Origin: Clostridia bacterium
Lineage (GTDB): Bacteria > Bacillota > Clostridia > UMGS1883
Reading direction: 5' to 3'
NCBI GenBank assembly: GCA_051866635.1
Contig: JBJDXJ010000029.1
Span: 1-39,936, forward strand
DNA length: 39,936 nt
The translations under genes and the position numbers were made by a program. Shown here in pieces: positions 11,691 through 26,195 of the stretch (position 1 is the stretch's first letter; the number at the start of each line of letters is the position of its first letter). The notes below the pieces were generated by a model that saw nothing but the letters and a program-made list of their open reading frames with translations, did no database searches and had not been told where the DNA came from.

Positions 11691-13421
11691 TCAGTAAATT
11701 ATGTCACTGTCGCAACCAATCTTTTCAAGCATTCTTTGGAAAGATGCAAAGCGGTTGGGGTAGAGCTGTTTAATTCCTATTTGCAAATCACGGTTAGAAT
11801 AGCAGAGCCAGTAAAGCCGTGAAAATTCAGCAAAGCCTTCATCGCTGTTTGTATTGCCGTATGTAGAAATTGTTGCAATGTCGTCTGTTACTGCCTGAGC
11901 CCATTTAGCTCCCTGACTCCAGTGTGATGCACGGTTATTTATATCACCGTTTGCCATATAGTCGTTGCTGTGACCGAGTTCGTGGGCAAAGCCTTTTATC
12001 ATGGAGCTTTCGTTTGCCGTGCCTGTCAGGCGGACAAACAATTCTTCCCCGCCGCAGTTATATGTGGAGGTATTTCCTGAAAGATATACATACATTGTTT
12101 TAATGTTCTTGCGGTATGCATAGGGAAATTTACCAAGGGCTGTAATTGCCGTCTGAACATTTGAAAAATCAGGGTCAACGCAGTAAAGTGAAACATTCTG
12201 CTCTGTGTCTTGTGTTTTGTATGTAACTTCAATCCTATAGCAGTTAATTTCCTGACCTGTGTAGGGGTGTTCATCACTTGCGGAATAAATAACACCGTCT
12301 TCTTCCACTAAATCCCACATAACATGTTTTGTTTTAATCGGGGCAGACTGTGTAACGACAGCGTCTCCGCCGGGGAATGAGGGAACAGTGTAGTAATCAA
12401 CAAGACTGCCCATTACGGGGGTTGAAACCGCATCAAGTATTTTTTCTTTTTGTTCTTCGGCGGTTAAGCTGTTACGGTTTAAATACACAGAAGTAAATGC
12501 CGATTCAATTGTGTCTAAGAAGGACTTACCGTTTGTAGCCGCCGATGGGAACACATCAGCACCTACAGAGGTGCAAATATCCATAACCCTTTGCTTTTCA
12601 GCTTCCGTCATTAATTTAAAACCGTCAAGTGCCGTTATAAGTGTTGAGGGTGTTTCTCCCACAAATTGCATCTGCCATACATAACATTCATCCTGAATAG
12701 TTACAGCACCGTCACAAGCTGCAAGGTAACCGCCATTTGCGTGACGAAGTGCAACACCATCTTCTTTATTTTCAATTATCCAACGCTGTTTGCCACTTCC
12801 GGGGGAGTAGAAATACATTCTTACACCGTTATCTTGGGTGTATTCCAGTCGGTAACGGGGCTGTGTGTAATCCTCAAAGGAATACTGATTATCAGACATA
12901 TCCTTTAATCTTAAGAGCGTGGGCGTATCAGACAATGACACCGTTTTCCCCGAAACGGATAACGATCCTTCTGGCGAGGATAAAGTATAATAACGCTCAC
13001 TTAAGCCACTGTATGTAACTGATGAATTATTCATTAACCCTTTTGTGCAAATAATTGTTGTTTTAAGGGTGGTTTGTGGCTTAACAGGCTCCATTGTACG
13101 CTTATTTAAAACAATAACCTTTGCATAATCACCGAAGGAAACCGTTTCGGGAATGGTAATGCTTACAGTTTGCATACTTGTGTCAGAAACAGTTTTCGTA
13201 ACACAGGAATAAAGTGTGTTGTCTGAAAGGTAGTAGCCTATTGCAAACAAGACCTCCTCCGGAGCGGACTCCAACTTTAAAACCGCACTGATTTCACCCT
13301 CTGTAAGCTCGGAAGAGTAAAAACCGAACTGCCCTTCAATCTCCTGTGCGGAAATCTGAAATGCAGATAATGAAAGGCAAATGGACATACATAAAATTAA
13401 CGATATAAATTTATTTTTCAC
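11691..13421 (-). CDS. Secreted putative zinc metallopeptidase (HExxH...E) with a possible beta-trefoil-like domain
   Basis: Signal peptide MKNKFISLILCMSICLSLSAFQISA; FAHELGHSND...YGNTNSDEGFAE; QRWIIE...LRHANGGYLA segment; GTG start with AAAGGAG RBS. Confidence 0.7.
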   Translation of the reverse strand: MKNKFISLILCMSICLSLSAFQISAQEIEGQFGFYSSELTEGEISAVLKLESAPEEVLFAIGYYLSDNTLYSCVTKTVSDTSMQTVSITIPETVSFGDYAKVIVLNKRTMEPVKPQTTLKTTIICTKGLMNNSSVTYSGLSERYYTLSSPEGSLSVSGKTVSLSDTPTLLRLKDMSDNQYSFEDYTQPRYRLEYTQDNGVRMYFYSPGSGKQRWIIENKEDGVALRHANGGYLAACDGAVTIQDECYVWQMQFVGETPSTLITALDGFKLMTEAEKQRVMDICTSVGADVFPSAATNGKSFLDTIESAFTSVYLNRNSLTAEEQKEKILDAVSTPVMGSLVDYYTVPSFPGGDAVVTQSAPIKTKHVMWDLVEEDGVIYSASDEHPYTGQEINCYRIEVTYKTQDTEQNVSLYCVDPDFSNVQTAITALGKFPYAYRKNIKTMYVYLSGNTSTYNCGGEELFVRLTGTANESSMIKGFAHELGHSNDYMANGDINNRASHWSQGAKWAQAVTDDIATISTYGNTNSDEGFAEFSRLYWLCYSNRDLQIGIKQLYPNRFASFQRMLEKIGCDSDIIY

Positions 13422-13467: not shown

Positions 13468-14238
13468 TTGTTAAATTTCAATAAACAAAGGATGAATTTT
13501 GTGCAGGCGGTTTTAATTATTTCAGGCACGGTGCTTTTTGTTAACGGAGCCTTTATGAGTTTAGTATCCAATTTCAATTTAGGTATTATTTTAACACTTT
13601 TGGCAGGGACGTTTTTTCTTTCCTGGGGTGTTTTTTATGAAAAAATCAGAGAAATAACAAAAATGGGCGTTTTAAAATGGGTTAAGCGTGTTGTTGTGAT
13701 GCTTATTTTAATTGAGATAGCATTGGTAAGTTTTATTGCTATCTACGGACAAAGTGACAATGTCTCTTACAGTGAGGACGCTGTAGTTGTACTTGGTTGC
13801 GGCATACGTGGGGACAGGGTTACCGTACCGCTTGCCTACAGGCTGAACAGTGCAATTGAATATCATAAAAAGAACCCTAATGCTGTGATTGTTGTAACGG
13901 GTGGTAAAGGTTTTCAGGAAACAATAACAGAAGCTGAAGCAATGGAAAAATACCTTATTTCACACGGTGTTGACCCGGATAAAATAATAAAAGAAGAAAA
14001 AGCAACAAGTACCAATGAGAATATGCGTTTTACAAAAGAAATTCTGGACAAGCATTTTGCAAAAGATTACAGCGTTGTTGTTATAACAAACAACTTCCAT
14101 ATATACCGCAGTGTTTCTATTGCAAAAATGGAAGGGTTTGAAAATGTTTACCATAAGCACGCCGGATTAAAATGGTACAATATGGCACCTTGCTATTTAA
14201 GAGAGAGCTTGGCAGTGTTGAAAATGTGGATGTTTTAA
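13468..14238 (+). CDS. YdcF/ElyC/SanA (DUF218) family membrane protein
   Basis: Three N-terminal hydrophobic helices; VVVLGCG, RL..AIEY, VTGGKG, TEAEAM, EEKATSTNEN, ITNNFHIYRS; exact start uncertain. Confidence 0.87.
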   Translation: MLNFNKQRMNFVQAVLIISGTVLFVNGAFMSLVSNFNLGIILTLLAGTFFLSWGVFYEKIREITKMGVLKWVKRVVVMLILIEIALVSFIAIYGQSDNVSYSEDAVVVLGCGIRGDRVTVPLAYRLNSAIEYHKKNPNAVIVVTGGKGFQETITEAEAMEKYLISHGVDPDKIIKEEKATSTNENMRFTKEILDKHFAKDYSVVVITNNFHIYRSVSIAKMEGFENVYHKHAGLKWYNMAPCYLRESLAVLKMWMF

Positions 14239-14378
14239 GCCTTCCCTTCCGGTTAGAAAGCTTTGACAGTGCATTTTGCAGTGAGAATAAGAGTATTTTA
14301 AGCCTTCCCCTTGAGTTGGAAAGCTTTGACGGTGCATTTTGCAGTGAAAATGAGAGTATTTTAAGCCTTCCCCTTGAG
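14233..14378 (+). repeat. 63-bp tandem repeat (2 full units plus a partial unit) abutting the left inverted repeat of the DUF559 gene
   Basis: Units begin ttttaagccttccc at 14233, 14296 and 14359; units 1 and 2 share gaaagctttgac.gtgcattttgcagtga.aat.agagta. Confidence 0.88.
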
Positions 14379-14812
14379 GGGAAGGGGGACCGCTTGCGGT
14401 GGATGAGGTGGAAAATAAATGAATAAAACCAATAATTCAAAATTGACAGGTTATGCAAAAACGTTAAGAAAAAATATGACAAAAGAAGAAAGACACCTTT
14501 GGTATGATTTTTTGAAAAATTTGTCTGTTACTGTAAACAGACAAAAAGTTATAGGTAAATATATTGTTGATTTTTATATAGCATCTGCCCGAATAGCTAT
14601 TGAACTTGATGGTTCGCAGCATTATGAAGAGGAAAATATAAAAGATGATAAAGAAAGAGATAAATACCTGAATGAAATAGGCATAAAAGTATTGAGGTAT
14701 TCAAATTTAGACATTAATAGCAATTTTAATGAAGTGTGTCAAAATATCTTGACCTATATAGACACCTCATCCGACGGCTGATGCCGCCACCTTCCCCTCA
14801 AGGGGAAGGCTT
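14363..14812. mobile_element. Putative REP/REPIN-like element: DUF559 gene between ~50-bp double-hairpin inverted repeats
   Basis: Left end 14363-14410 and the reverse complement of right end 14763-14812 share aagccttccccttgaggggaagg (23 nt) and ggatgaggtg (10 nt); mobility is inferred. Confidence 0.6.
14419..14781 (+). CDS. DUF559 (YcjD / very-short-patch-repair-like) endonuclease domain protein
   Basis: AKTLRKNMTKEERHLW, RQKVIGKYIVDFY, IELDGSQHY, D.ERD.YL...GIKVLRYSN. Confidence 0.92.
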   Translation: MNKTNNSKLTGYAKTLRKNMTKEERHLWYDFLKNLSVTVNRQKVIGKYIVDFYIASARIAIELDGSQHYEEENIKDDKERDKYLNEIGIKVLRYSNLDINSNFNEVCQNILTYIDTSSDG

Positions 14813-14826
14813 TTTTTCAATGAATA

Positions 14827-14855
14827 TTGACAAAATCTGTCGTTTACGTTACAAT
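14827..14855 (+). promoter_or_regulatory. Sigma-A promoter for mscL
   Basis: TTGACA-17 nt-TACAAT. Confidence 0.7.
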
Positions 14856-14887
14856 TTAAGTGAAATATGAAAAAAGGGGATAGTGAA

Positions 14888-15328
14888 ATGGGATTTTTGA
14901 AGGATTTTAAGAGCTTTGCAATGAAGGGCAATGTTATCGACATGGCTGTAGGCGTTGTAATAGGTTCAGCTTTCGGTAAAATTGTAACAAGTATTGTAAA
15001 CGATGTTATTATGCCTATATTCGGTGTTTTAACGGCAGGCATTAAATTTACAGATTTGAAGTGGGTTTTGTCACCCCAGGTTGTTGACGAGGTTACGGGA
15101 GAAGTTACAAAGGCTGAAATTGCACTTACATACGGCAACCTTATTCAGAATGTTGTTGACTTTTTATTAATTGCACTTTCAATTTTTGTTGTTATCCGTA
15201 TTGTGACTAAGGCATCGGAAAAACTTAGAAAACAAGAAGAAGCAGTTCCCGAATCTGAAGAGCCGGCAGGACCTACCCAGGAAGAACTCTTAACGGAAAT
15301 CAGAGATTTACTTAAAAATAAGCAGTAA
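14888..15328 (+). CDS. mscL: Large-conductance mechanosensitive channel
   Basis: FLKDFKSFAMKGNVIDMAVGVVIGSAFGKIVTS, YGNLIQ, LLTEIRDLL. Confidence 0.96.
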   Translation: MGFLKDFKSFAMKGNVIDMAVGVVIGSAFGKIVTSIVNDVIMPIFGVLTAGIKFTDLKWVLSPQVVDEVTGEVTKAEIALTYGNLIQNVVDFLLIALSIFVVIRIVTKASEKLRKQEEAVPESEEPAGPTQEELLTEIRDLLKNKQ

Positions 15329-18598: not shown

Positions 18599-18852
18599 AA
18601 AAATTCCAAGCAGATTTTGTTTGGAATTTTAGCGCGTGGAAAAAAACCTTTGGCCCCCTCTGACGAGGGGGCTGTCAGCAAAGCTGACTGGGGGAGAGAA
18701 GATGAATTATTCCTTTTTACCGGAAAAAGGAGAAAAACTGTAACATTTTCTCTCCCTCCGTCACGGCTTTCCCGTGCCACCTCCCTCGTCAGAGGGAGGC
18801 TATTTAGTTTATCGACAGTCAAAAATTCCAAGCAAATTTTGTTTGGAATTTT
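18599..18852. repeat. Gene-less REPIN-like double-hairpin inverted-repeat element (18653-18800) enclosed by two 32-bp palindromic direct repeats
   Basis: gccccctctgacgagggggc.gtcagcaaagctgac.gggggagagaa ... ttctctccctccgtcacggctttcccgtgccacctccctcgtcagagggaggc; aaaaattccaagca(g/a)attttgtttggaatttt at 18599-18630 and 18821-18852. Confidence 0.82.
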
Positions 18853-18932: not shown

Positions 18933-21900
18933 ATGAAAAAGTTTTTATGTACTATTTTAACAATCTGCATGGTTTTCAGCACTGTTTTTGCAGTGCCTGC
19001 ATTTGCCGAAACAGCAAGCGGAGAGTGTGGCGAAAACTTAACGTGGGTTTTAACAGATGACGGAACTCTTACAATAAGCGGCAGCGGTGATATGACAAGC
19101 TGGACTTCTACTTCATCTGTGCCGTGGATCAGTTATCGTTCGGCTATCACATCCGTTGTGATTGATAGCGGCGTTACGAGCATAGGAACGTATGCGTTTT
19201 ATAATTGCACCGGTTTAACGAGTGTAGAAATCCCGGACAGCATGACGAGCATAGGGAAAAGTGCGTTTTATAAGTGCACCGGTTTAACAAGCGTAGTAAT
19301 TCCCAATAGCGTGACGAGCTTAGAAGAGCGTGCGTTCGAAAGCTGCAGCGGTTTAACGAATGTAACAATCCCCGACGGCGTTACGAGCATGGGACAGATG
19401 GCGTTTTATAATTGCACCGGTTTAACGAGCGTTACAATCGGCAGCGGCGTTACGAGCATAGGAAAGGTTACGTTTTATGGTTGCACCGGTTTAACGAGCA
19501 TTGTAATAAGCAGCAGCGTGACGAGCATAGAGTCAAGTGCGTTTTATAATTGCAGCAGCTTAACGGATGTATATTACTTTGGTAACGAGGCGGATTGGGC
19601 AAACATAACTATCGGAAGCGGAAACAACCCTCTTACAAATGCTAATATACATTACAATTCAACATCAATGCCAACGATTACAGCAAGCGGAGAGTGCGGC
19701 GAAAGCTTAACGTGGGTTTTAGAAGATGACGGAACCCTTAAAATAAGCGGCACGGGTGATATGACAAGCTGGACTTCTTATACATCTATGCCCTGGTACA
19801 GTTATCTGACAAGTATCAAATCCGTTGTGATTGACAGCGGCGTTACGAGCATAGGACAATATGCGTTCCGGGGTTGCAGCAGTTTAACAAGTATAAAAAT
19901 CCCCAAAAGCGTGACGAGTATAGGGAATTATACGTTCGAAAGTTGCACCGGTTTAACGAGCGCAGAAATCCCCGATGGCGTTACGAATATAGGGAATTAT
20001 GCGTTTGAAAATTGCAGCAGTTTAACGAGTGTAACAATCCCCAAAAGCGTGACGAGTACAGGAAATTATACGTTCTATGGTTGTAGCGGTTTAACGAGCG
20101 CAGAAATCCTCGATGGTGTGACGAGCATAGGATACGGTGTGTTCTATAATTGCAGCAGTTTAACCATTCTGACAATCCCCAATAGCGTGACGAGCATAGG
20201 GAACGGTGCGTTTTATGGTTGCAGCGGTTTAACTGAGCTGACAATCCCCAATAGCGTGACGAGCATAGGGAACAGTGTATTTAGTAGTTGCCGCAGTTTA
20301 ACGAGTGTAGAAATCCCGGACGGCGTTACGAGCATAGGGAACGGTGCGTTTAAAAATTGCAGCAGTTTAACGAGTGTAGAAATCCCGGACGGCGTTACGA
20401 GCATAGGGAAAAGTGCGTTTGAAAATTGCAGCAGTTTAACGAGTGTAGAAATCCCGGGCAGCGTGACGAGCATAGGGGACAATGCGTTTAGTAGTTGCAG
20501 CGGTTTAACGGATGTATATTACATTGGCAGTACGGCGGATTGGGCAAACATAACTATCGGAACCGGGAACGACCCTCTTACAAATGCAGCGATATATTAC
20601 GCTTTATCAAGCGGAGAATGCGGAGAAAATTTAAGATGGATTTTAACATATGACGGAACCCTTAAAATAAGAGGCACGGGTGATATGACAAACTGGACTT
20701 CTTCTTCATCAATGCCGTGGTACAGTAGCCTTACAAATATCAAATTCGTTGTGATTGACAGCGGCGTGACGAGCATAGGGGATTATGCGTTTTATAATTG
20801 CAGCAATTTAACGAGCGCAGAAATCCCCGATGGCGTGACAAGTGTAGGGGAATATGCGTTTTATAGGTGCACCGGTTTAATAAATGTAAAAATCCCCGGC
20901 AGCGTTACAATCATAGGGTACAGTTCGTTTACAGGTTGCAGCGGTTTAATGGAATTTGAAATAGGCAGCAGCGTGACGAGCATAGATAACAATGTGTTTT
21001 GGAATTGCAACGATTTAACGGATGTATATTACGTTGGCAGCGAGGCGGATTGGGCAAATATAACTATCGGAAGCGGAAACGACCGTCTTACAAATGCTAA
21101 TATACATTACAATTCATCAATGCCAACGATTATTGCAATAGGAGAATGCGGCACAAACTTAACGTGGTTTTTAAAAGATGACGGAACCCTTATAATAAGA
21201 GGCACGGGTGATATGACAAACTGGGATTCTTATACATCTGTGCCCTGGTACAGTTATCGGTCGGATATCAAATCTGTTTTAATTGATAGCGGCGTTACGA
21301 GCATAGGGGCAAGTGCGTTTTTTGAATGCAGCAGTTTAACTGAGCTGACAATCCCAAATAGCGTTACGAGCGTAGGGGGTGCTGCGTTCCGGGGTTGCAG
21401 CAGTTTAAAGATTGTAGAAATCCCCAATAGCGTTACGAACATAGGGTACGGTGCGTTTCCCTATTGCAGCAGTTTAACAAGTATAAATGTAGATTTATCA
21501 AACAATAATTACAGTTCGGAAAATGGTGTGCTTTTTAATAAAAACAAAACAGAACTGGTTTGTTACCCCGGCGGCAAAAGCGGTTCATACATAATCCCCA
21601 ATAGCGTGACGAGCATAGGACAATATGCGTTCTGGGGTTGCAGAGGTTTAACGGATTTAGAAATCGGTAGCAACGTTACGAGTATAGGGGACAAAGCGTT
21701 TTTGTATTGCAGCGGTTTATCGGATTTAGAAATCCCCAGTAGCGTGACGAGCATAGGGGACAATGCGTTTTACGGTTGCAGCAGTTTAACGGATGTATAT
21801 TACGCAGGCAGCGAGGCGGATTGGGCAAATATAACTATCGGAACCGGGAACGACCCCCTTACAAATGCTACAATACATTACGCTTTATCAAGCGGAGAAT

Positions 21901-24900
21901 GCGGCACAAACTTAACGTGGGTTTTAAAAGATGACGGAACCCTTACAATAAGCGGCACGGGTGATATGACAAACTGGACTTCTTATTCATCTGTGCCCTG
22001 GTACAGTTATCAGTCAAGTATCAAATCCGTTGTGATTGACAGCGGCGTTACGAGCATAGGACAATATGCGTTCCGGGATTGCAGCAGTTTAACGGATGTC
22101 GCAATCCCCAATAGCGTTACGAGTATAGAGGCATGTGCGTTCCAGGTTTGCAGCGGTTTAACTAAGCTGACAATCCCCGATAGCGTGACGAGCATAGGGG
22201 AGGGTGCGTTTACGGGTTGCAGCGGTTTAACGGATGTATATTACGCAGGCACCGAGGCGGATTGGGCAAACATAACTATCGGAAACTATAACGAACCTCT
22301 TACAAATGCTACGATACATTACGTTTTATCAAGCGGAGAATGCGGCACAAACTTAACGTGGGTTTTAGCAGATGACGGAACCCTTACAATAAGCGGCAGC
22401 GGTGATATGACAAGCTGGGATTATCTTACATCTGTGCCCTGGCACATTTATAAGTTAAGTATTAAATCTGTTGTGATTGACAGCGAAGTTAAGAGCATAG
22501 GAAGTTGGGCGTTTGCCTATTGCGACGATTTAACGAGCGTTACAATCCCCAATAGCGTGACGAGCATAGGGGCAAGGGCGTTTACCCATTGCACCGGTTT
22601 AACGGATGTATATTACGCAGGCAGTAAGGCGGATTGGGCAAACATAACTATCGGAACCGAGAACGACCCTCTTACAAATGCTACAATACATTACGTTTTA
22701 TCAAGCGGAGAATGCGGCACAAACTTAACGTGGGTCTTAAAAGATGACGGAACCCTTACAATAAGCGGCAGCGGTGATATGACAAGCTGGGCTTCTTATT
22801 CAGCTGTGCCCTGGTACAGTTATCGGTCAAGTATCAAATCTGTTGTAATCGTCAGCGGCGTTACGAGCATAGGGAATAATGCGTTTTATGGTTGCATCGG
22901 TTTAACGAGTGCAGCAATCCCCAATAGCGTGACGAGCATAGGGAACGGTGCGTTTAATAATTGCAGAGGTTTAAAGATTGTAGAAATCCCCAATAGCGTG
23001 ACGAGCATAGGGAACGGTGCGTTTAATAATTGCAGAGGTTTAACTGAGCTGACAATCCCCAATAGCGTTACGAGTATAGAGGCAAGTGCGTTTGCTGGTT
23101 GCACCGGTTTAACTGAGCTGACAATCCCCAATAGCGTTACGAGTATTGGAAATTATGCGTTTGATGGTTGCAGCAGTTTAACGAGCGTTACTATTCCCAA
23201 TAGCGTTACGAGAATAGGGGCATATGCGTTTGATGATTGCAGCAGTTTAACGAGCATAAATGTAGATTTATCAAACAATAATTACAGTTCGGAAAATGGT
23301 GTGCTTTTTAATAAAAACAAAACAGAACTGGTTTGTTACCCCGGCGGCAAAAGCGGTTCATACATAATCCCCAATAGCGTGACGAGTATAGGGGATCATG
23401 CGTTCGAATGTTGCAGCGGTTTAACGAGTGTAACAATCCCCGATAGTGTGACGAGTATAGGGGCATACGCGTTTTATGGTTGCGACGGTTTAACGGATGT
23501 GTATTACGGTGGCAGCGAGGCGGATTGGGCAAATATAGCTATCGGAATAGAAAACGAACTCCTTACAGATGCTACAATACATTACAATTCATCATCAATG
23601 CCTATTGCAAGCGGAGAGTGCGGCACAAACTTAACGTGGGTTTTAGCAGATGACGGAACCCTTACAATAAGCGGCACGGGTGATATGACAAGCTGGACTT
23701 CTACTTCATCTGTGCCCTGGTACAGTTATCGGTCAAGTATCAAATCCGTTGTAATCGGCAGCGGCGTTACGAGCATAGGACAACATGCGTTCTATGATTG
23801 CAGCAGTTTAACCGGCGTTGCAATCCCCAATAGCGTGACGAGCATAGGGGAGGGTGCGTTCGAAAGTTGCAGCGGTTTAACGAATGTAGAAATCCCCAAT
23901 AGCGTGACGAGCATAGGGGAGGGTGCGTTTTTCGATTGCAACGGTTTAACAAGCGTAACAATCTCCGATAGCGTTACGAGCATAGGACAAAGTACGTTTT
24001 ACGGTTGCAGCAGTTTAACGGATTTAGAAATCGGCAGTAGTGTGAAGAGCATAGGGTTGTTTGCGTTCTATGGTTGCAGCAGTTTAACAGGCGTCGCAAT
24101 CCCCGATAGCGTTACGAGCATAGGGATAGCTACGTTCTTAGATTGCAGCAGTTTAACGGATGTATATTACGCAGGCAGCGAGGCGGATTGGGCAAATATA
24201 ACTATTGGAGCCGAAAACGAACCCCTTACAAATGCTACAATACATTACAATTCATCAATGCCTATTGCAAGCGGAGAATGCGGCACAAACTTAACATGGG
24301 TTTTAGCAGATGACGGAACCCTTACAATAAGCGGCACGGGTGATATGACAAGCTGGGATTCTATTACATCTGTGCCCTGGTACAGTTATCGGTCAAGTAT
24401 CAAATCCGTTGTGATTGACAGCGGTGTTACGAGCATAGGACAATATGCGTTCCGGGGTTGCAGCGGTTTAACGGATGTCGCAATCCCCAATAGCGTTACG
24501 AGCATAGGGCGCGGTGCGTTTGCCAATTGCAGCAGTTTAAAGAATGTCACAATCCCGGATGGTGTGACGAGTATAGGGAATAATGCGTTTTATTATTGCA
24601 GCAGTTTAACTAAGCTGACAATCCCCGATAGCGTGACGAGCATAGGGGAGGATGCATTTACGGGTTGCAGCAGTTTAATAAGTATAAATGTAGATTTATC
24701 AAACAATAATTACAGTTCGGAAAATGGTGTGCTTTTTAATAAAAACAAAACAGAACTGGTTTGTTACCCCGGAGGCAAAAGCGGTTCATACATAATCCCC
24801 GATGGCGTGGCGAGTTTAGGGGCATTTGCGTTTTATAAGTGCACCGGTTTAACAAGCGTAACAATCCCCGATGGCGTGACGAGTATAGGAAATTATGCAT

Positions 24901-26195
24901 TTTATGGTTGCAGTAGTTTAACGGAGATAACAATCCCCGACAGCGTGACGAGTATAGAGCATTTTGCGTTTTATGGTTGCGACTGTTTAACGGATGTATA
25001 TTACGCAGGCAACGAAGCTGATTGGGCAAATATAACTATTGGAGACAAAAACGAACCCCTTACAAATGCTACAATACATTACAACTGTAATTCAACAGTA
25101 TCGGTAACAATTGACGGCACAGAAACGGTTTATAAGTCGTTAAATGAAGCAATAAGCTTTGCAAACGAAAGCGGAAAGACCGCCCAAATCAAGCTTTTGT
25201 GCGATTTGGAAGAGGAAGAAATCGTAAGTGATTGTGCATTTAAAATAGACCTTGGCGGATTTACCGTGGGAACACTTTCGGTTACAGGTAATGTTAATCT
25301 GGCAAACGGAACTATAAACACACTTAACATTTCGGGCATTGCGGCAACGGAAAATGTTACCGTGACAAGTACAAATGCCGTAAATTACGGCACCGAAGGC
25401 ACAAAAGGCGTGTATACAAACTATACCTCAGGTGCGAGCATGATAGACGGCGCCCAGGTACGAATTGGCGGCGGAGTAGCCGAGGACGGCACCATAGACG
25501 CACAAAGCGGATTGAGATTTATCTCAGAGGTTAACACTGCCGACACATTGGCAGCCGATATTATTTCAAACCATTATAAAAATTCAACATATGATGAAGG
25601 CTACTCTATCGGCACAATGATAACCGTTGAAGGAAGCGACGCGGCAGCTTACGTTCCGGCAACTGCTTGGCAAAATGATGACTGCACCGTATTTTCGGCA
25701 GCTATTACCAATTTAAAGTCAAACAATTTCAACCGTAAATATACGGCGCAGACATATGTTGAATATAACGGCGTTAAATTTATTAACAACGACAAAACAA
25801 CAAGAAGTATGTATCAGGTTGCAGCAGGCTTACTTGCACAGAGCAGTGAGGAAGATGCACAAAAGCTTGTAGCTGTTCTTAATGCTTACGTAAATCAAAC
25901 GGGTATCAGGCTTGTTTTATCGGACAATGTTTTGCGGGCAAACGAGGATAGCTTAGGCAAAAAAGGCGCATATTCTTCTGACGCATTTTTCTCTGTAGGC
26001 GAAACTAAGGTTGACGGAAAAACATATACGGTAGTTTTAACGCCTGTAGGCGAAAGAACAACACTCGATACCGTTAACTTTGCAAAATACATAAGAATAA
26101 ACAATAACAACAGCCAAGTTAAAGCGGCGGTAGAATTGACGGCGAACGCTGACGGAACATATACCCTTGTATTTGATTTGGAAAAAACAAACTGA
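18933..26195 (+). CDS. Giant secreted BspA/TpLRR (LRR_5) leucine-rich-repeat surface protein with a C-terminal 'GAQVRIGGG...SGLRF' module
   Basis: Signal peptide MKKFL...AVPAFA; about 52 (hand count) 23-aa repeats of IP.SVTSIG..AF..C..LT.. in nine capped blocks; GAGGTG RBS. Confidence 0.92.
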   Translation: MKKFLCTILTICMVFSTVFAVPAFAETASGECGENLTWVLTDDGTLTISGSGDMTSWTSTSSVPWISYRSAITSVVIDSGVTSIGTYAFYNCTGLTSVEIPDSMTSIGKSAFYKCTGLTSVVIPNSVTSLEERAFESCSGLTNVTIPDGVTSMGQMAFYNCTGLTSVTIGSGVTSIGKVTFYGCTGLTSIVISSSVTSIESSAFYNCSSLTDVYYFGNEADWANITIGSGNNPLTNANIHYNSTSMPTITASGECGESLTWVLEDDGTLKISGTGDMTSWTSYTSMPWYSYLTSIKSVVIDSGVTSIGQYAFRGCSSLTSIKIPKSVTSIGNYTFESCTGLTSAEIPDGVTNIGNYAFENCSSLTSVTIPKSVTSTGNYTFYGCSGLTSAEILDGVTSIGYGVFYNCSSLTILTIPNSVTSIGNGAFYGCSGLTELTIPNSVTSIGNSVFSSCRSLTSVEIPDGVTSIGNGAFKNCSSLTSVEIPDGVTSIGKSAFENCSSLTSVEIPGSVTSIGDNAFSSCSGLTDVYYIGSTADWANITIGTGNDPLTNAAIYYALSSGECGENLRWILTYDGTLKIRGTGDMTNWTSSSSMPWYSSLTNIKFVVIDSGVTSIGDYAFYNCSNLTSAEIPDGVTSVGEYAFYRCTGLINVKIPGSVTIIGYSSFTGCSGLMEFEIGSSVTSIDNNVFWNCNDLTDVYYVGSEADWANITIGSGNDRLTNANIHYNSSMPTIIAIGECGTNLTWFLKDDGTLIIRGTGDMTNWDSYTSVPWYSYRSDIKSVLIDSGVTSIGASAFFECSSLTELTIPNSVTSVGGAAFRGCSSLKIVEIPNSVTNIGYGAFPYCSSLTSINVDLSNNNYSSENGVLFNKNKTELVCYPGGKSGSYIIPNSVTSIGQYAFWGCRGLTDLEIGSNVTSIGDKAFLYCSGLSDLEIPSSVTSIGDNAFYGCSSLTDVYYAGSEADWANITIGTGNDPLTNATIHYALSSGECGTNLTWVLKDDGTLTISGTGDMTNWTSYSSVPWYSYQSSIKSVVIDSGVTSIGQYAFRDCSSLTDVAIPNSVTSIEACAFQVCSGLTKLTIPDSVTSIGEGAFTGCSGLTDVYYAGTEADWANITIGNYNEPLTNATIHYVLSSGECGTNLTWVLADDGTLTISGSGDMTSWDYLTSVPWHIYKLSIKSVVIDSEVKSIGSWAFAYCDDLTSVTIPNSVTSIGARAFTHCTGLTDVYYAGSKADWANITIGTENDPLTNATIHYVLSSGECGTNLTWVLKDDGTLTISGSGDMTSWASYSAVPWYSYRSSIKSVVIVSGVTSIGNNAFYGCIGLTSAAIPNSVTSIGNGAFNNCRGLKIVEIPNSVTSIGNGAFNNCRGLTELTIPNSVTSIEASAFAGCTGLTELTIPNSVTSIGNYAFDGCSSLTSVTIPNSVTRIGAYAFDDCSSLTSINVDLSNNNYSSENGVLFNKNKTELVCYPGGKSGSYIIPNSVTSIGDHAFECCSGLTSVTIPDSVTSIGAYAFYGCDGLTDVYYGGSEADWANIAIGIENELLTDATIHYNSSSMPIASGECGTNLTWVLADDGTLTISGTGDMTSWTSTSSVPWYSYRSSIKSVVIGSGVTSIGQHAFYDCSSLTGVAIPNSVTSIGEGAFESCSGLTNVEIPNSVTSIGEGAFFDCNGLTSVTISDSVTSIGQSTFYGCSSLTDLEIGSSVKSIGLFAFYGCSSLTGVAIPDSVTSIGIATFLDCSSLTDVYYAGSEADWANITIGAENEPLTNATIHYNSSMPIASGECGTNLTWVLADDGTLTISGTGDMTSWDSITSVPWYSYRSSIKSVVIDSGVTSIGQYAFRGCSGLTDVAIPNSVTSIGRGAFANCSSLKNVTIPDGVTSIGNNAFYYCSSLTKLTIPDSVTSIGEDAFTGCSSLISINVDLSNNNYSSENGVLFNKNKTELVCYPGGKSGSYIIPDGVASLGAFAFYKCTGLTSVTIPDGVTSIGNYAFYGCSSLTEITIPDSVTSIEHFAFYGCDCLTDVYYAGNEADWANITIGDKNEPLTNATIHYNCNSTVSVTIDGTETVYKSLNEAISFANESGKTAQIKLLCDLEEEEIVSDCAFKIDLGGFTVGTLSVTGNVNLANGTINTLNISGIAATENVTVTSTNAVNYGTEGTKGVYTNYTSGASMIDGAQVRIGGGVAEDGTIDAQSGLRFISEVNTADTLAADIISNHYKNSTYDEGYSIGTMITVEGSDAAAYVPATAWQNDDCTVFSAAITNLKSNNFNRKYTAQTYVEYNGVKFINNDKTTRSMYQVAAGLLAQSSEEDAQKLVAVLNAYVNQTGIRLVLSDNVLRANEDSLGKKGAYSSDAFFSVGETKVDGKTYTVVLTPVGERTTLDTVNFAKYIRINNNNSQVKAAVELTANADGTYTLVFDLEKTN

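Follow-up and report, generated by a model that had tools for sequence, protein, structure and literature searches.

A DUF559 nuclease gene framed by inverted, structured repeat units: a candidate mobile cassette in a Clostridia bacterium

Small enzyme genes and short structured DNA repeats are associated with each other in several well-described bacterial systems. The systems of repetitive extragenic palindromes and their associated tyrosine transposases (REP/REPIN-RAYT) depend on a HUH Y1 transposase (PF01797), free-standing homing endonuclease genes are small selfish genes, and IS200/IS605 elements are bounded by distinct left and right ends. A further group of repeats, known as BoxC, PIT or TM_ECO in Escherichia coli, has been treated as a set of intrastrand triplexes, and excerpts of the work of Holder et al. 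associate neither a mobility gene nor a nuclease gene with TM_ECO (PMC4666352). Here, we describe a cassette that shares traits with each of these systems and is identical to none. It lies in a stretch of 39,936 nucleotides (nt) from a Clostridia bacterium (GenBank assembly GCA_051866635.1, contig JBJDXJ010000029.1, positions 1 to 39,936 of the forward strand; the whole stretch is called the window), and consists of a gene for a DUF559 nuclease enclosed by two inverted, structured repeat units between a DUF218 gene and mscL. A search of the full-text literature, with subscription journals outside its coverage, returned no description of DUF559 genes framed by such repeats.

An earlier interpretation of this DNA, made without any database search (the sequence-only reading), had proposed that the gene is enclosed by inverted double-hairpin units, and the repeat search, direct reading of the sequence and DNA folding all bear this out. 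The cassette occupies positions 14363-14812, and its parts, together with the repeats at its left junction, are as follows.

14363-14410, + strand: left unit, with a pyrimidine arm (14366-14373), a loop (14374-14377) and a purine arm (14378-14385) forming the outer hairpin (14366-14385), then the inner hairpin (14389-14400) and the tail (14401-14410)
14419-14781, + strand: gene for a DUF559 (Vsr-like PD-(D/E)XK) nuclease of 120 amino acids, assigned by its PF04480 match
14763-14812, - strand: right unit, with outer hairpin and tail as in the left unit and a different inner hairpin (14773-14788)
14790-14819, + strand: right outer hairpin followed by a run of T, terminator-like when read on this strand (promoter/terminator scan)
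14233-14362, + strand: a pair of 63-nt tandem repeats at the junction; in each, a diverged duplicate of the final ~35 nt of the DUF218 gene is joined to a degenerate left-end outer hairpin (the first ~20 nt of the left end)

In the inward direction, each unit (48-50 nt) has a pyrimidine arm of 8 nt, separated by a loop of 4 nt from its purine complement, and then a short inner hairpin and a G-rich tail of 10 nt. The two units are inverted relative to each other, the repeat search pairing 14363-14388 with 14787-14812 (26 nt, 96% complementary) and, further inside, 14401-14410 with 14763-14772 (10 nt, 100% complementary). The outer stem is a perfect 8 bp at both ends, and the inner hairpins of the two ends are unlike in sequence, with pairing kept in each. 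The outer loops, TTGA and TCAA, are reverse complements of each other, and the arrangement is thus a true inverted repeat; an origin from a duplicated palindromic target is ruled out by the same loops. Both hairpins appear in the predicted DNA fold of each unit (-10.8 kcal/mol, z -2.7 on the left; -13.8 kcal/mol, z -4.3 on the right), where the tail stays unpaired in a program, ViennaRNA, that has no triplex model. A covariance model of the unit recovers the left and the right end, both with an E-value of 2.3e-14, and no known RNA family or intron was found when 13900-15200 was compared with Rfam at E up to 10 (best score 20 bits against a gathering score of 35).

The gene is closely fitted into these ends, in agreement with what had been noticed from the sequence. 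The left tail, which stops 8 nt short of the ATG, provides the Shine-Dalgarno region; the TGA stop codon (14779-14781) falls inside the right inner hairpin, with the right unit encoding the last residues and the stop. The gene body is also clearly more AT-rich than its neighbours, with a G+C content of 27% compared with 36% in the DUF218 gene and 38% in mscL. The cassette leaves no room for a promoter of its own, and the promoter/terminator scan places a promoter-like site for mscL at 14827-14855, just after the terminator-like element at 14790-14819.

The encoded protein matches PF04480 with 101 bits (cut-off 20.6) and an E-value of 4.3e-29, over profile positions 2-108 of 109. The family profile also matches a solved DUF559 protein, PDB 3HRL (E 4.6e-18), and weakly matches PDB 3R3P (E 0.005), which was deposited as 'mobile intron protein' and which we take to be the homing endonuclease I-Bth0305I. 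The residues that the sequence-only reading had singled out, namely the D of VDFY and the E, D and H of IELDGSQH (D51, E62, D64 and H68), are invariant in a 7-sequence alignment and are putative catalytic residues by analogy with Vsr. In comparison with nine close homologues, pN (0.12-0.19) is well below a saturated pS (~0.62-0.81), which indicates that the DUF559 protein is under purifying selection. PF04480 matches were also met within open frames of 1425-1790 amino acids at five loci (L165, L167, L168, L172 and L173, in genomes G237, G382, G174, G342 and G246), so that DUF559 occurs fused to, or embedded in, very large proteins as well.

The view of the ends as double hairpins, right as far as the hairpins are concerned, proved to be incomplete, since the 10-nt tail also mirrors the purine arm of the outer hairpin. 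The mirror agreement, for which the triplex pattern allows one mismatch at most, reaches 7 of 8 positions at both ends of the window cassette and 8 of 8 in the units of a second sequence class (class 2) described below. Purine arm GGAGAAGG is accompanied by tail GGATGAGG, AAGGGGAGG by GGAGGGGTT, AAAGGGAGG by GGAGGGATT and GAGGGAGG by GGAGGGAG, and in other families of the phylum GGGAAAGG is accompanied by GGAAAGGG and GGGGAAGG by GGAAGGGG, the tail co-varying with the purine arm in at least six arm classes. At equal stringency across 80 homologous loci, the mirror rule holds at 43 left and 39 right ends (82 in all), compared with 6 and 10 (16) for a direct-repeat rule. Watson-Crick pairing between tail and pyrimidine arm was considered as well; it is possible at 6 of 8 positions in the window class and at only ~3 of 9 in the AAGGGGAGG class, and the mirror rule was preferred. 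The underlying G.G, A.A and T.A rule is the one that the Holder et al. excerpts give as the criterion for class II purine-motif intrastrand triplexes (PMC4666352). By its sequence, the unit has the pattern of such a triplex, and triplex formation by these units is putative.

The same layout recurs far beyond the window. The 80 homologous loci encode relatives 55-79% identical to the window protein, and a strict detector found a unit beside 58 of the 80 genes (left 43, right 39, both 24), whereas it found none in 20 shuffles of each of the 160 flanks; with a looser detector, the numbers rise to 55 left, 41 right and 36 both. Together with the covariance-model E-values, the empty shuffles exclude a chance origin of the unit structure. 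Across the cassette family, the unit is 43-55 nt long with an outer loop of 3-6 nt, and the DUF559 gene has ~120 codons. A nuclease gene between inverted structured repeats is therefore a family trait and not a local accident.

The inner part of the unit is held together by pairing more than by sequence. In the MAFFT alignment the inner stems are out of register, and pairing was judged by per-sequence stem statistics instead: among 69 distinct inner segments, a perfect stem of at least 5 bp is present in 67%, compared with 3% of shuffles, and 44 distinct stem arms are used. A GAA or GTA triloop caps many of the inner hairpins, as is characteristic of DNA mini-hairpins of very high stability, which hints that the units fold at the DNA level rather than at the RNA level. 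At one locus (L175, genome G193), a unit with a 13-nt hairpin second loop and one with a 3-nt second loop stand side by side.

That the locus is not fixed, as the idea of a mobile element would lead one to expect, is shown by comparison with congeners. By tblastn, DUF559 is present at one of nine orthologous DUF218 loci, namely that of the window's own genome (G000), and the cassette is missing between DUF218 and mscL in all eight congeners examined. The DUF218-mscL spacer measures 631 nt here and 54 nt in G002, 77 in G005, 206 in G009, 262 in G006 and 263 in G008; in the remaining three (G001, G004 and G007), a different gene follows DUF218. The window cassette is an insertion acquired in this lineage. 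The site of the genome's second cassette, on contig C14, gives a similar picture, with a gap of 626 nt here compared with 66 nt in G002.

The spacer itself shows other peculiarities. The gene found between DUF218 and mscL in G001, G004 and G007 (loci L004, L006 and L010) is ~1.4-1.5 kb long, has a signal-peptide-like start and is absent here. At the same three loci, and at L005, L008 and L009 (G009, G006 and G008), the spacer after DUF218 contains small hairpins in series, linked by a 6-base tag (...CGATAT...) that keeps recurring. The presence of this different hairpin-array repeat in several congeners marks the DUF218-mscL site as a hotspot for structured repeats.

Gene-less derivatives, which had been predicted, exist in the same genome. 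Its second DUF559 gene, on contig C14, has analogous ends of class 2, and three miniatures of this cassette were found at unrelated loci, one in the window and one each on contigs C11 and C34. All three share one internal segment of ~45 nt, which points to descent from a single internally deleted copy that was later multiplied. The copy in the window and the repeats on either side of it are the following.

18599-18630, + strand: left member of the 32-nt direct repeat that encloses the miniature; it has the form of a terminator-like hairpin (local flank alignment)
18650-18801, - strand: gene-less miniature of the C14 cassette (left unit, ~45 nt, right unit); the copy in common with contig C11 spans 18618-18820
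18821-18852, + strand: right copy of the 32-nt direct repeat, with 1 mismatch (local flank alignment)

The left unit of this miniature folds with a predicted -15.1 kcal/mol (z -4.3). Solo units akin to the window ends are found on contigs C41, C49, C52 and C57, and the genome holds about a dozen unit copies in all. The unit on C41 lies in frame inside an open ImmA-like gene, where it coincides with 16 residues that the two closest homologues lack; as those homologues are only 47-48% identical, an in-frame insertion is suggestive rather than proven. On C52 (45238-46237), a polysaccharide-deacetylase gene ends in the solo unit, behind which an internal part of that gene is repeated in diverged form, and C57 (4760-4895) carries a fragment of the same deacetylase gene tail with a unit, the triplex-type unit being located at the joint.

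Duplicated flanks accompany some of these copies. The 32-nt repeat around the window miniature stands out clearly (local alignment score 29, z 19 compared with shuffles), and the paralogous loci on C6 and C41 each have just one copy of a similar hairpin. No orthologous empty site for this miniature was found in nine congeners, where the flanking genes are not conserved, which leaves the comparison to paralogous loci only. The C11 miniature is flanked by 14-nt direct repeats, and five of 23 two-ended cassettes elsewhere have direct repeats of 28-47 nt close to their ends, two of them (L096 and L100) maybe representing one event. A target-site duplication of fixed length was not found; flank duplications are absent or variable, at 14-47 nt.

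Taking as firm the anatomy, the widespread cassette family, the insertion and the existence of gene-less derivatives, we put forward, with evenly balanced confidence, the reading that the cassette is evolutionarily mobile and that its nickase acts on the cassette's folded ends, in a REP/RAYT-like layout built on another enzyme class; we infer both the nuclease action and the transposition. The Vsr-like structure-specific nickase would recognise the folded ends in their extruded or single-stranded state, and would nick at or near them. Host replication or repair would then copy or relocate the units, the gene-less pairs and, more rarely, the whole cassette, and staggered nicks would produce the long and variable flank duplications.

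Several observations weigh against this proposal. We know of no strand-transfer chemistry for a PD-(D/E)XK nuclease alone. Such flanks are common among relatives of the window protein, but in a sample of 301 genomes of the phylum, 22 of which have DUF559 at E up to 1e-10, units stand at only six of 28 PF04480 loci, five of them convincing, and the unit-framed layout is thus a trait of a PF04480 subfamily. Among 41 related genomes scored for DUF559 (Pfam cut-off) and for matches to the unit model, matches occur in 20 of 20 genomes with DUF559, which speaks for the proposal, and also in seven of the 21 others, counts that come from kin rather than from independent genomes and from a model built on units beside DUF559 genes; five of the seven DUF559-negative genomes with units are 93-100% complete. 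The gene-less copies agree with the idea of a self-spreading element, but full-length copies within one genome are only 68-81% identical in DNA in G019, G006, G002, G009 and G000 and mostly lack any DNA match to each other in G193 and G104. These copies are old, the gene gives no sign of recent intragenomic transposition, and recent transposition of the full cassette was rejected on the same comparison. In G016, with one DUF559 gene and more than 90 unit matches, mostly in inverted pairs ~155 nt long, the gene-less pairs (L124-L143) lie within larger inverted-repeat elements of two kinds, one with ends resembling TAATACTAATCCCAA and one GC-rich, and may have been amplified by something else. 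As for the flanks, 18 of the 23 two-ended cassettes have no duplication. No flanking direct repeat was found at the window cassette, where the alignment score was at the shuffle mean, and comparison with the shortest empty sites (G002 and G005) suggests at most a duplicated run of T, with the exact junction beyond fixing at ~72% genome identity. Besides this, the window cassette has only the tandem copies at its left junction (14233-14378, period 63, 2.3 copies, 90% matches by TRF).

Several of these observations could also be accommodated if the units are self-propagating, structure-prone repeats, spread by slippage, template switching and repair, with DUF559 either as a mere passenger or as a 'caretaker' nuclease of the host whose gene was captured between two of them. 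Units would then be expected where no DUF559 gene was detected, as in seven of 21 such related genomes, and so would the slippage-like junction duplications and tandem copies. An exact 43-mer of the window left unit is found beside eight of the 80 genes, at either end, next to proteins 60-78% identical to the window protein; the ends thus turn over faster than the gene, as they would if unit turnover were independent of it. The TM_ECO repeats, tied to local instability with no adjoining mobility genes according to the Holder et al. excerpts (PMC4666352), offer a parallel. Such enzyme-independent spread, however, leaves unexplained why one gene family sits exactly between inverted units, which make up its ribosome-binding site and stop codon, at 24-36 of 80 loci, why the unit class follows the cassette, as in the class-2 miniatures and the C14 gene, and why units and DUF559 co-occur in 20 of 20 genomes against seven of 21. 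We consider it unlikely, while ranking it as the strongest competitor of the nickase-driven cassette.

A role in the control of expression or orientation would give the units a function of a different sort: the mRNA structure would mask the ribosome-binding site, the right unit would terminate transcription, and recombination between the arms would invert the gene relative to an outside promoter, switching it on or off. The missing room for a promoter, the Shine-Dalgarno sequence in the left tail and the terminator-like right hairpin with its T run are in keeping with such a device. Two end types, A and B, surround the gene in both arrangements among the 80 loci ((A,B) 11, (B,A) 9 and (A,A) 7), and the ~60-nt segment between the units of the G016 pairs is found in both orientations. 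The A/B arrangements fit a published enrichment of DUF559 domain-containing proteins among the targets predicted for programmed inversion (with an odds ratio of 14.3), which is not discussed further in the excerpts of that paper (PMC9881135). A control device nonetheless fails to account for gene-less pairs and solo units at unrelated loci, for the in-frame copy in another gene and for presence or absence between congeners; no invertase gene adjoins the cassette, and the inner hairpins, which differ and yet each pair with themselves, speak for local folding and against long-range pairing of the 5' and 3' ends. We regard this account as distinctly improbable. Most improbable of all is mobilisation by a Y1 (HUH) transposase encoded elsewhere, with the repeats as REP-like or IS200/IS605-like ends and DUF559 as cargo. 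The layout does resemble REP sequences around a RAYT gene, and the genome has two PF01797 matches, C46:95288 (one stop, at a contig end) and C38:210807 (28.8 bits). No unit core, however, lies within 1.5-3 kb of the two: the core 8-mer is missing within ~2.3 kb upstream of the C46 match, at the contig end, and within ~3 kb to the left and right of the C38 match, so that, over these distances, the absence of such repeats beside a RAYT or IS200-type gene, on which the sequence-only reading had staked its proposal, was borne out. Moreover, the conserved partner at the 80 loci is DUF559 and not a Y1 gene.

If the nickase-driven cassette is the correct reading, its reach may be wider. We tentatively suggest, and think it somewhat less probable than its negation, that DUF559 cassettes form a new class of mobile element, in which a Vsr-like nickase acts on hairpin-plus-triplex ends and its staggered nicks seed the copying of the ends, of gene-less pairs and of the cassette itself, also in frame into genes, with long and variable target duplications, and of which BoxC/PIT/TM_ECO of E. 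coli and other bacteria would be the non-autonomous relics. Downstream of ycjD, the DUF559 gene of E. coli K-12, TM_ECO no. 9 follows at a distance of 168 nt; a degenerate TM look-alike overlaps the ycjD stop codon, and there is a 39-nt duplicate of the ycjD 3' end. This duplicate, the left-junction tandem copies of the window cassette and the duplicated deacetylase fragment at the C52 unit may be the same phenomenon as the flank duplications. According to excerpts of a 2026 paper, ycjD stands at a site where the eefRABCD operon is missing (PMC12817139). Directly upstream of the ycjD start (L113) there is also a perfect 16-bp inverted repeat whose 3' arm ends in GAATGAGGTG, close to the unit tail described here.

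Should this hold, DUF559, a very common domain of unknown function, would be given a testable role, in which it acts, as a structure-specific nuclease, on the folded flanks of its own gene, and the orphan intrastrand-triplex repeats (BoxC/PIT/TM_ECO), which are tied to genome instability and have no known enzyme or origin, would gain a candidate partner gene. A system of repeats and enzyme that relies on a PD-(D/E)XK nickase in place of a HUH or DDE transposase would widen the known routes of DNA mobility, and there would be an explanation for gene tails in duplicate, for additional peptide segments in frame and for intergenic hotspots. A small nuclease that reads the shape of DNA is also a possible tool.

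Other repeats and genes of the window and its genome deserve mention in their own right. Window positions 18933-26195 hold an open reading frame of 2420 amino acids with many internal repeats of ~480 nt (75-80% identity) and paralogous pieces on contigs C6, C41, C13, C25 and C54. On the - strand, 11691-13421 encodes a secreted-looking product of 576 amino acids, probably a zinc metallopeptidase, with an HExxH motif and a match to PF07737 (anthrax lethal-factor N/C-terminal domain family) that stays below threshold, at E 0.003 and 17.7 bits for a cut-off of 27.4. A dispersed repeat of ~39 nt with 93-97% identity, met when the C14 locus was used as query, is present in at least eight copies (C14:41203-41241, C14:50922, C62:3401, C49:43966, C58:25367, C38:151639, C31:33383 and C16:60963).

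Compared with the systems named at the outset, the cassette is closest in layout to REP/REPIN-RAYT, with which it has in common a single small gene between inverted short palindromic repeats, gene-less pairs and singlets dispersed in the same genome, a repeat type that follows the gene, and gene copies that are divergent within a genome while the repeats are the multiplying part. It differs in its enzyme, a PF04480 PD-(D/E)XK Vsr-like protein instead of a HUH Y1 transposase, in a unit made of two hairpins and a mirror-symmetric G-rich tail, in its low copy number of about a dozen and in flank duplications of 14-47 nt. With I-Bth0305I and the Vsr-like (EDxHD) homing endonucleases it shares the nuclease fold, as indicated by the 3R3P match, and with free-standing homing endonuclease genes the character of a small selfish gene that is present or absent at a fixed site between relatives. 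Unlike them, it lies in no intron or intein and has structured inverted ends, and gene-less derivatives at unrelated loci, which homing alone, to our knowledge, does not produce. The subterminal-hairpin ends are reminiscent of IS200/IS605 and of miniature inverted-repeat transposable elements (MITEs) and suggest recognition of folded single-stranded DNA, and internally deleted, non-autonomous copies with one common deletion are likewise MITE-like; in contrast to both groups, the cassette has no Y1 or DDE transposase gene and no target duplication of fixed length, and its ends, unlike those of IS200/IS605, are inverted copies of each other. From TM_ECO, the units differ in their arms of 8 nt instead of 9 nt and in a second loop of 15-24 nt that contains a hairpin (15 nt on the left and 17 nt on the right in the window), compared with 3 nt, and since the published finder ITxF works with loops of 1-6 nt, they fall outside its catalogue. 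Set beside the Holder et al. excerpts (PMC4666352), the units are like BoxC/PIT/TM_ECO in three ways: a C-rich arm, a loop, a G-rich arm, a second loop and a second G-rich block obeying the G.G, A.A and T.A rule follow each other in the same order; the repeats often form inverted pairs with unlike second loops (type A paired with type B in E. coli), matched here by the unlike inner hairpins; and both are tied to locally variable DNA.

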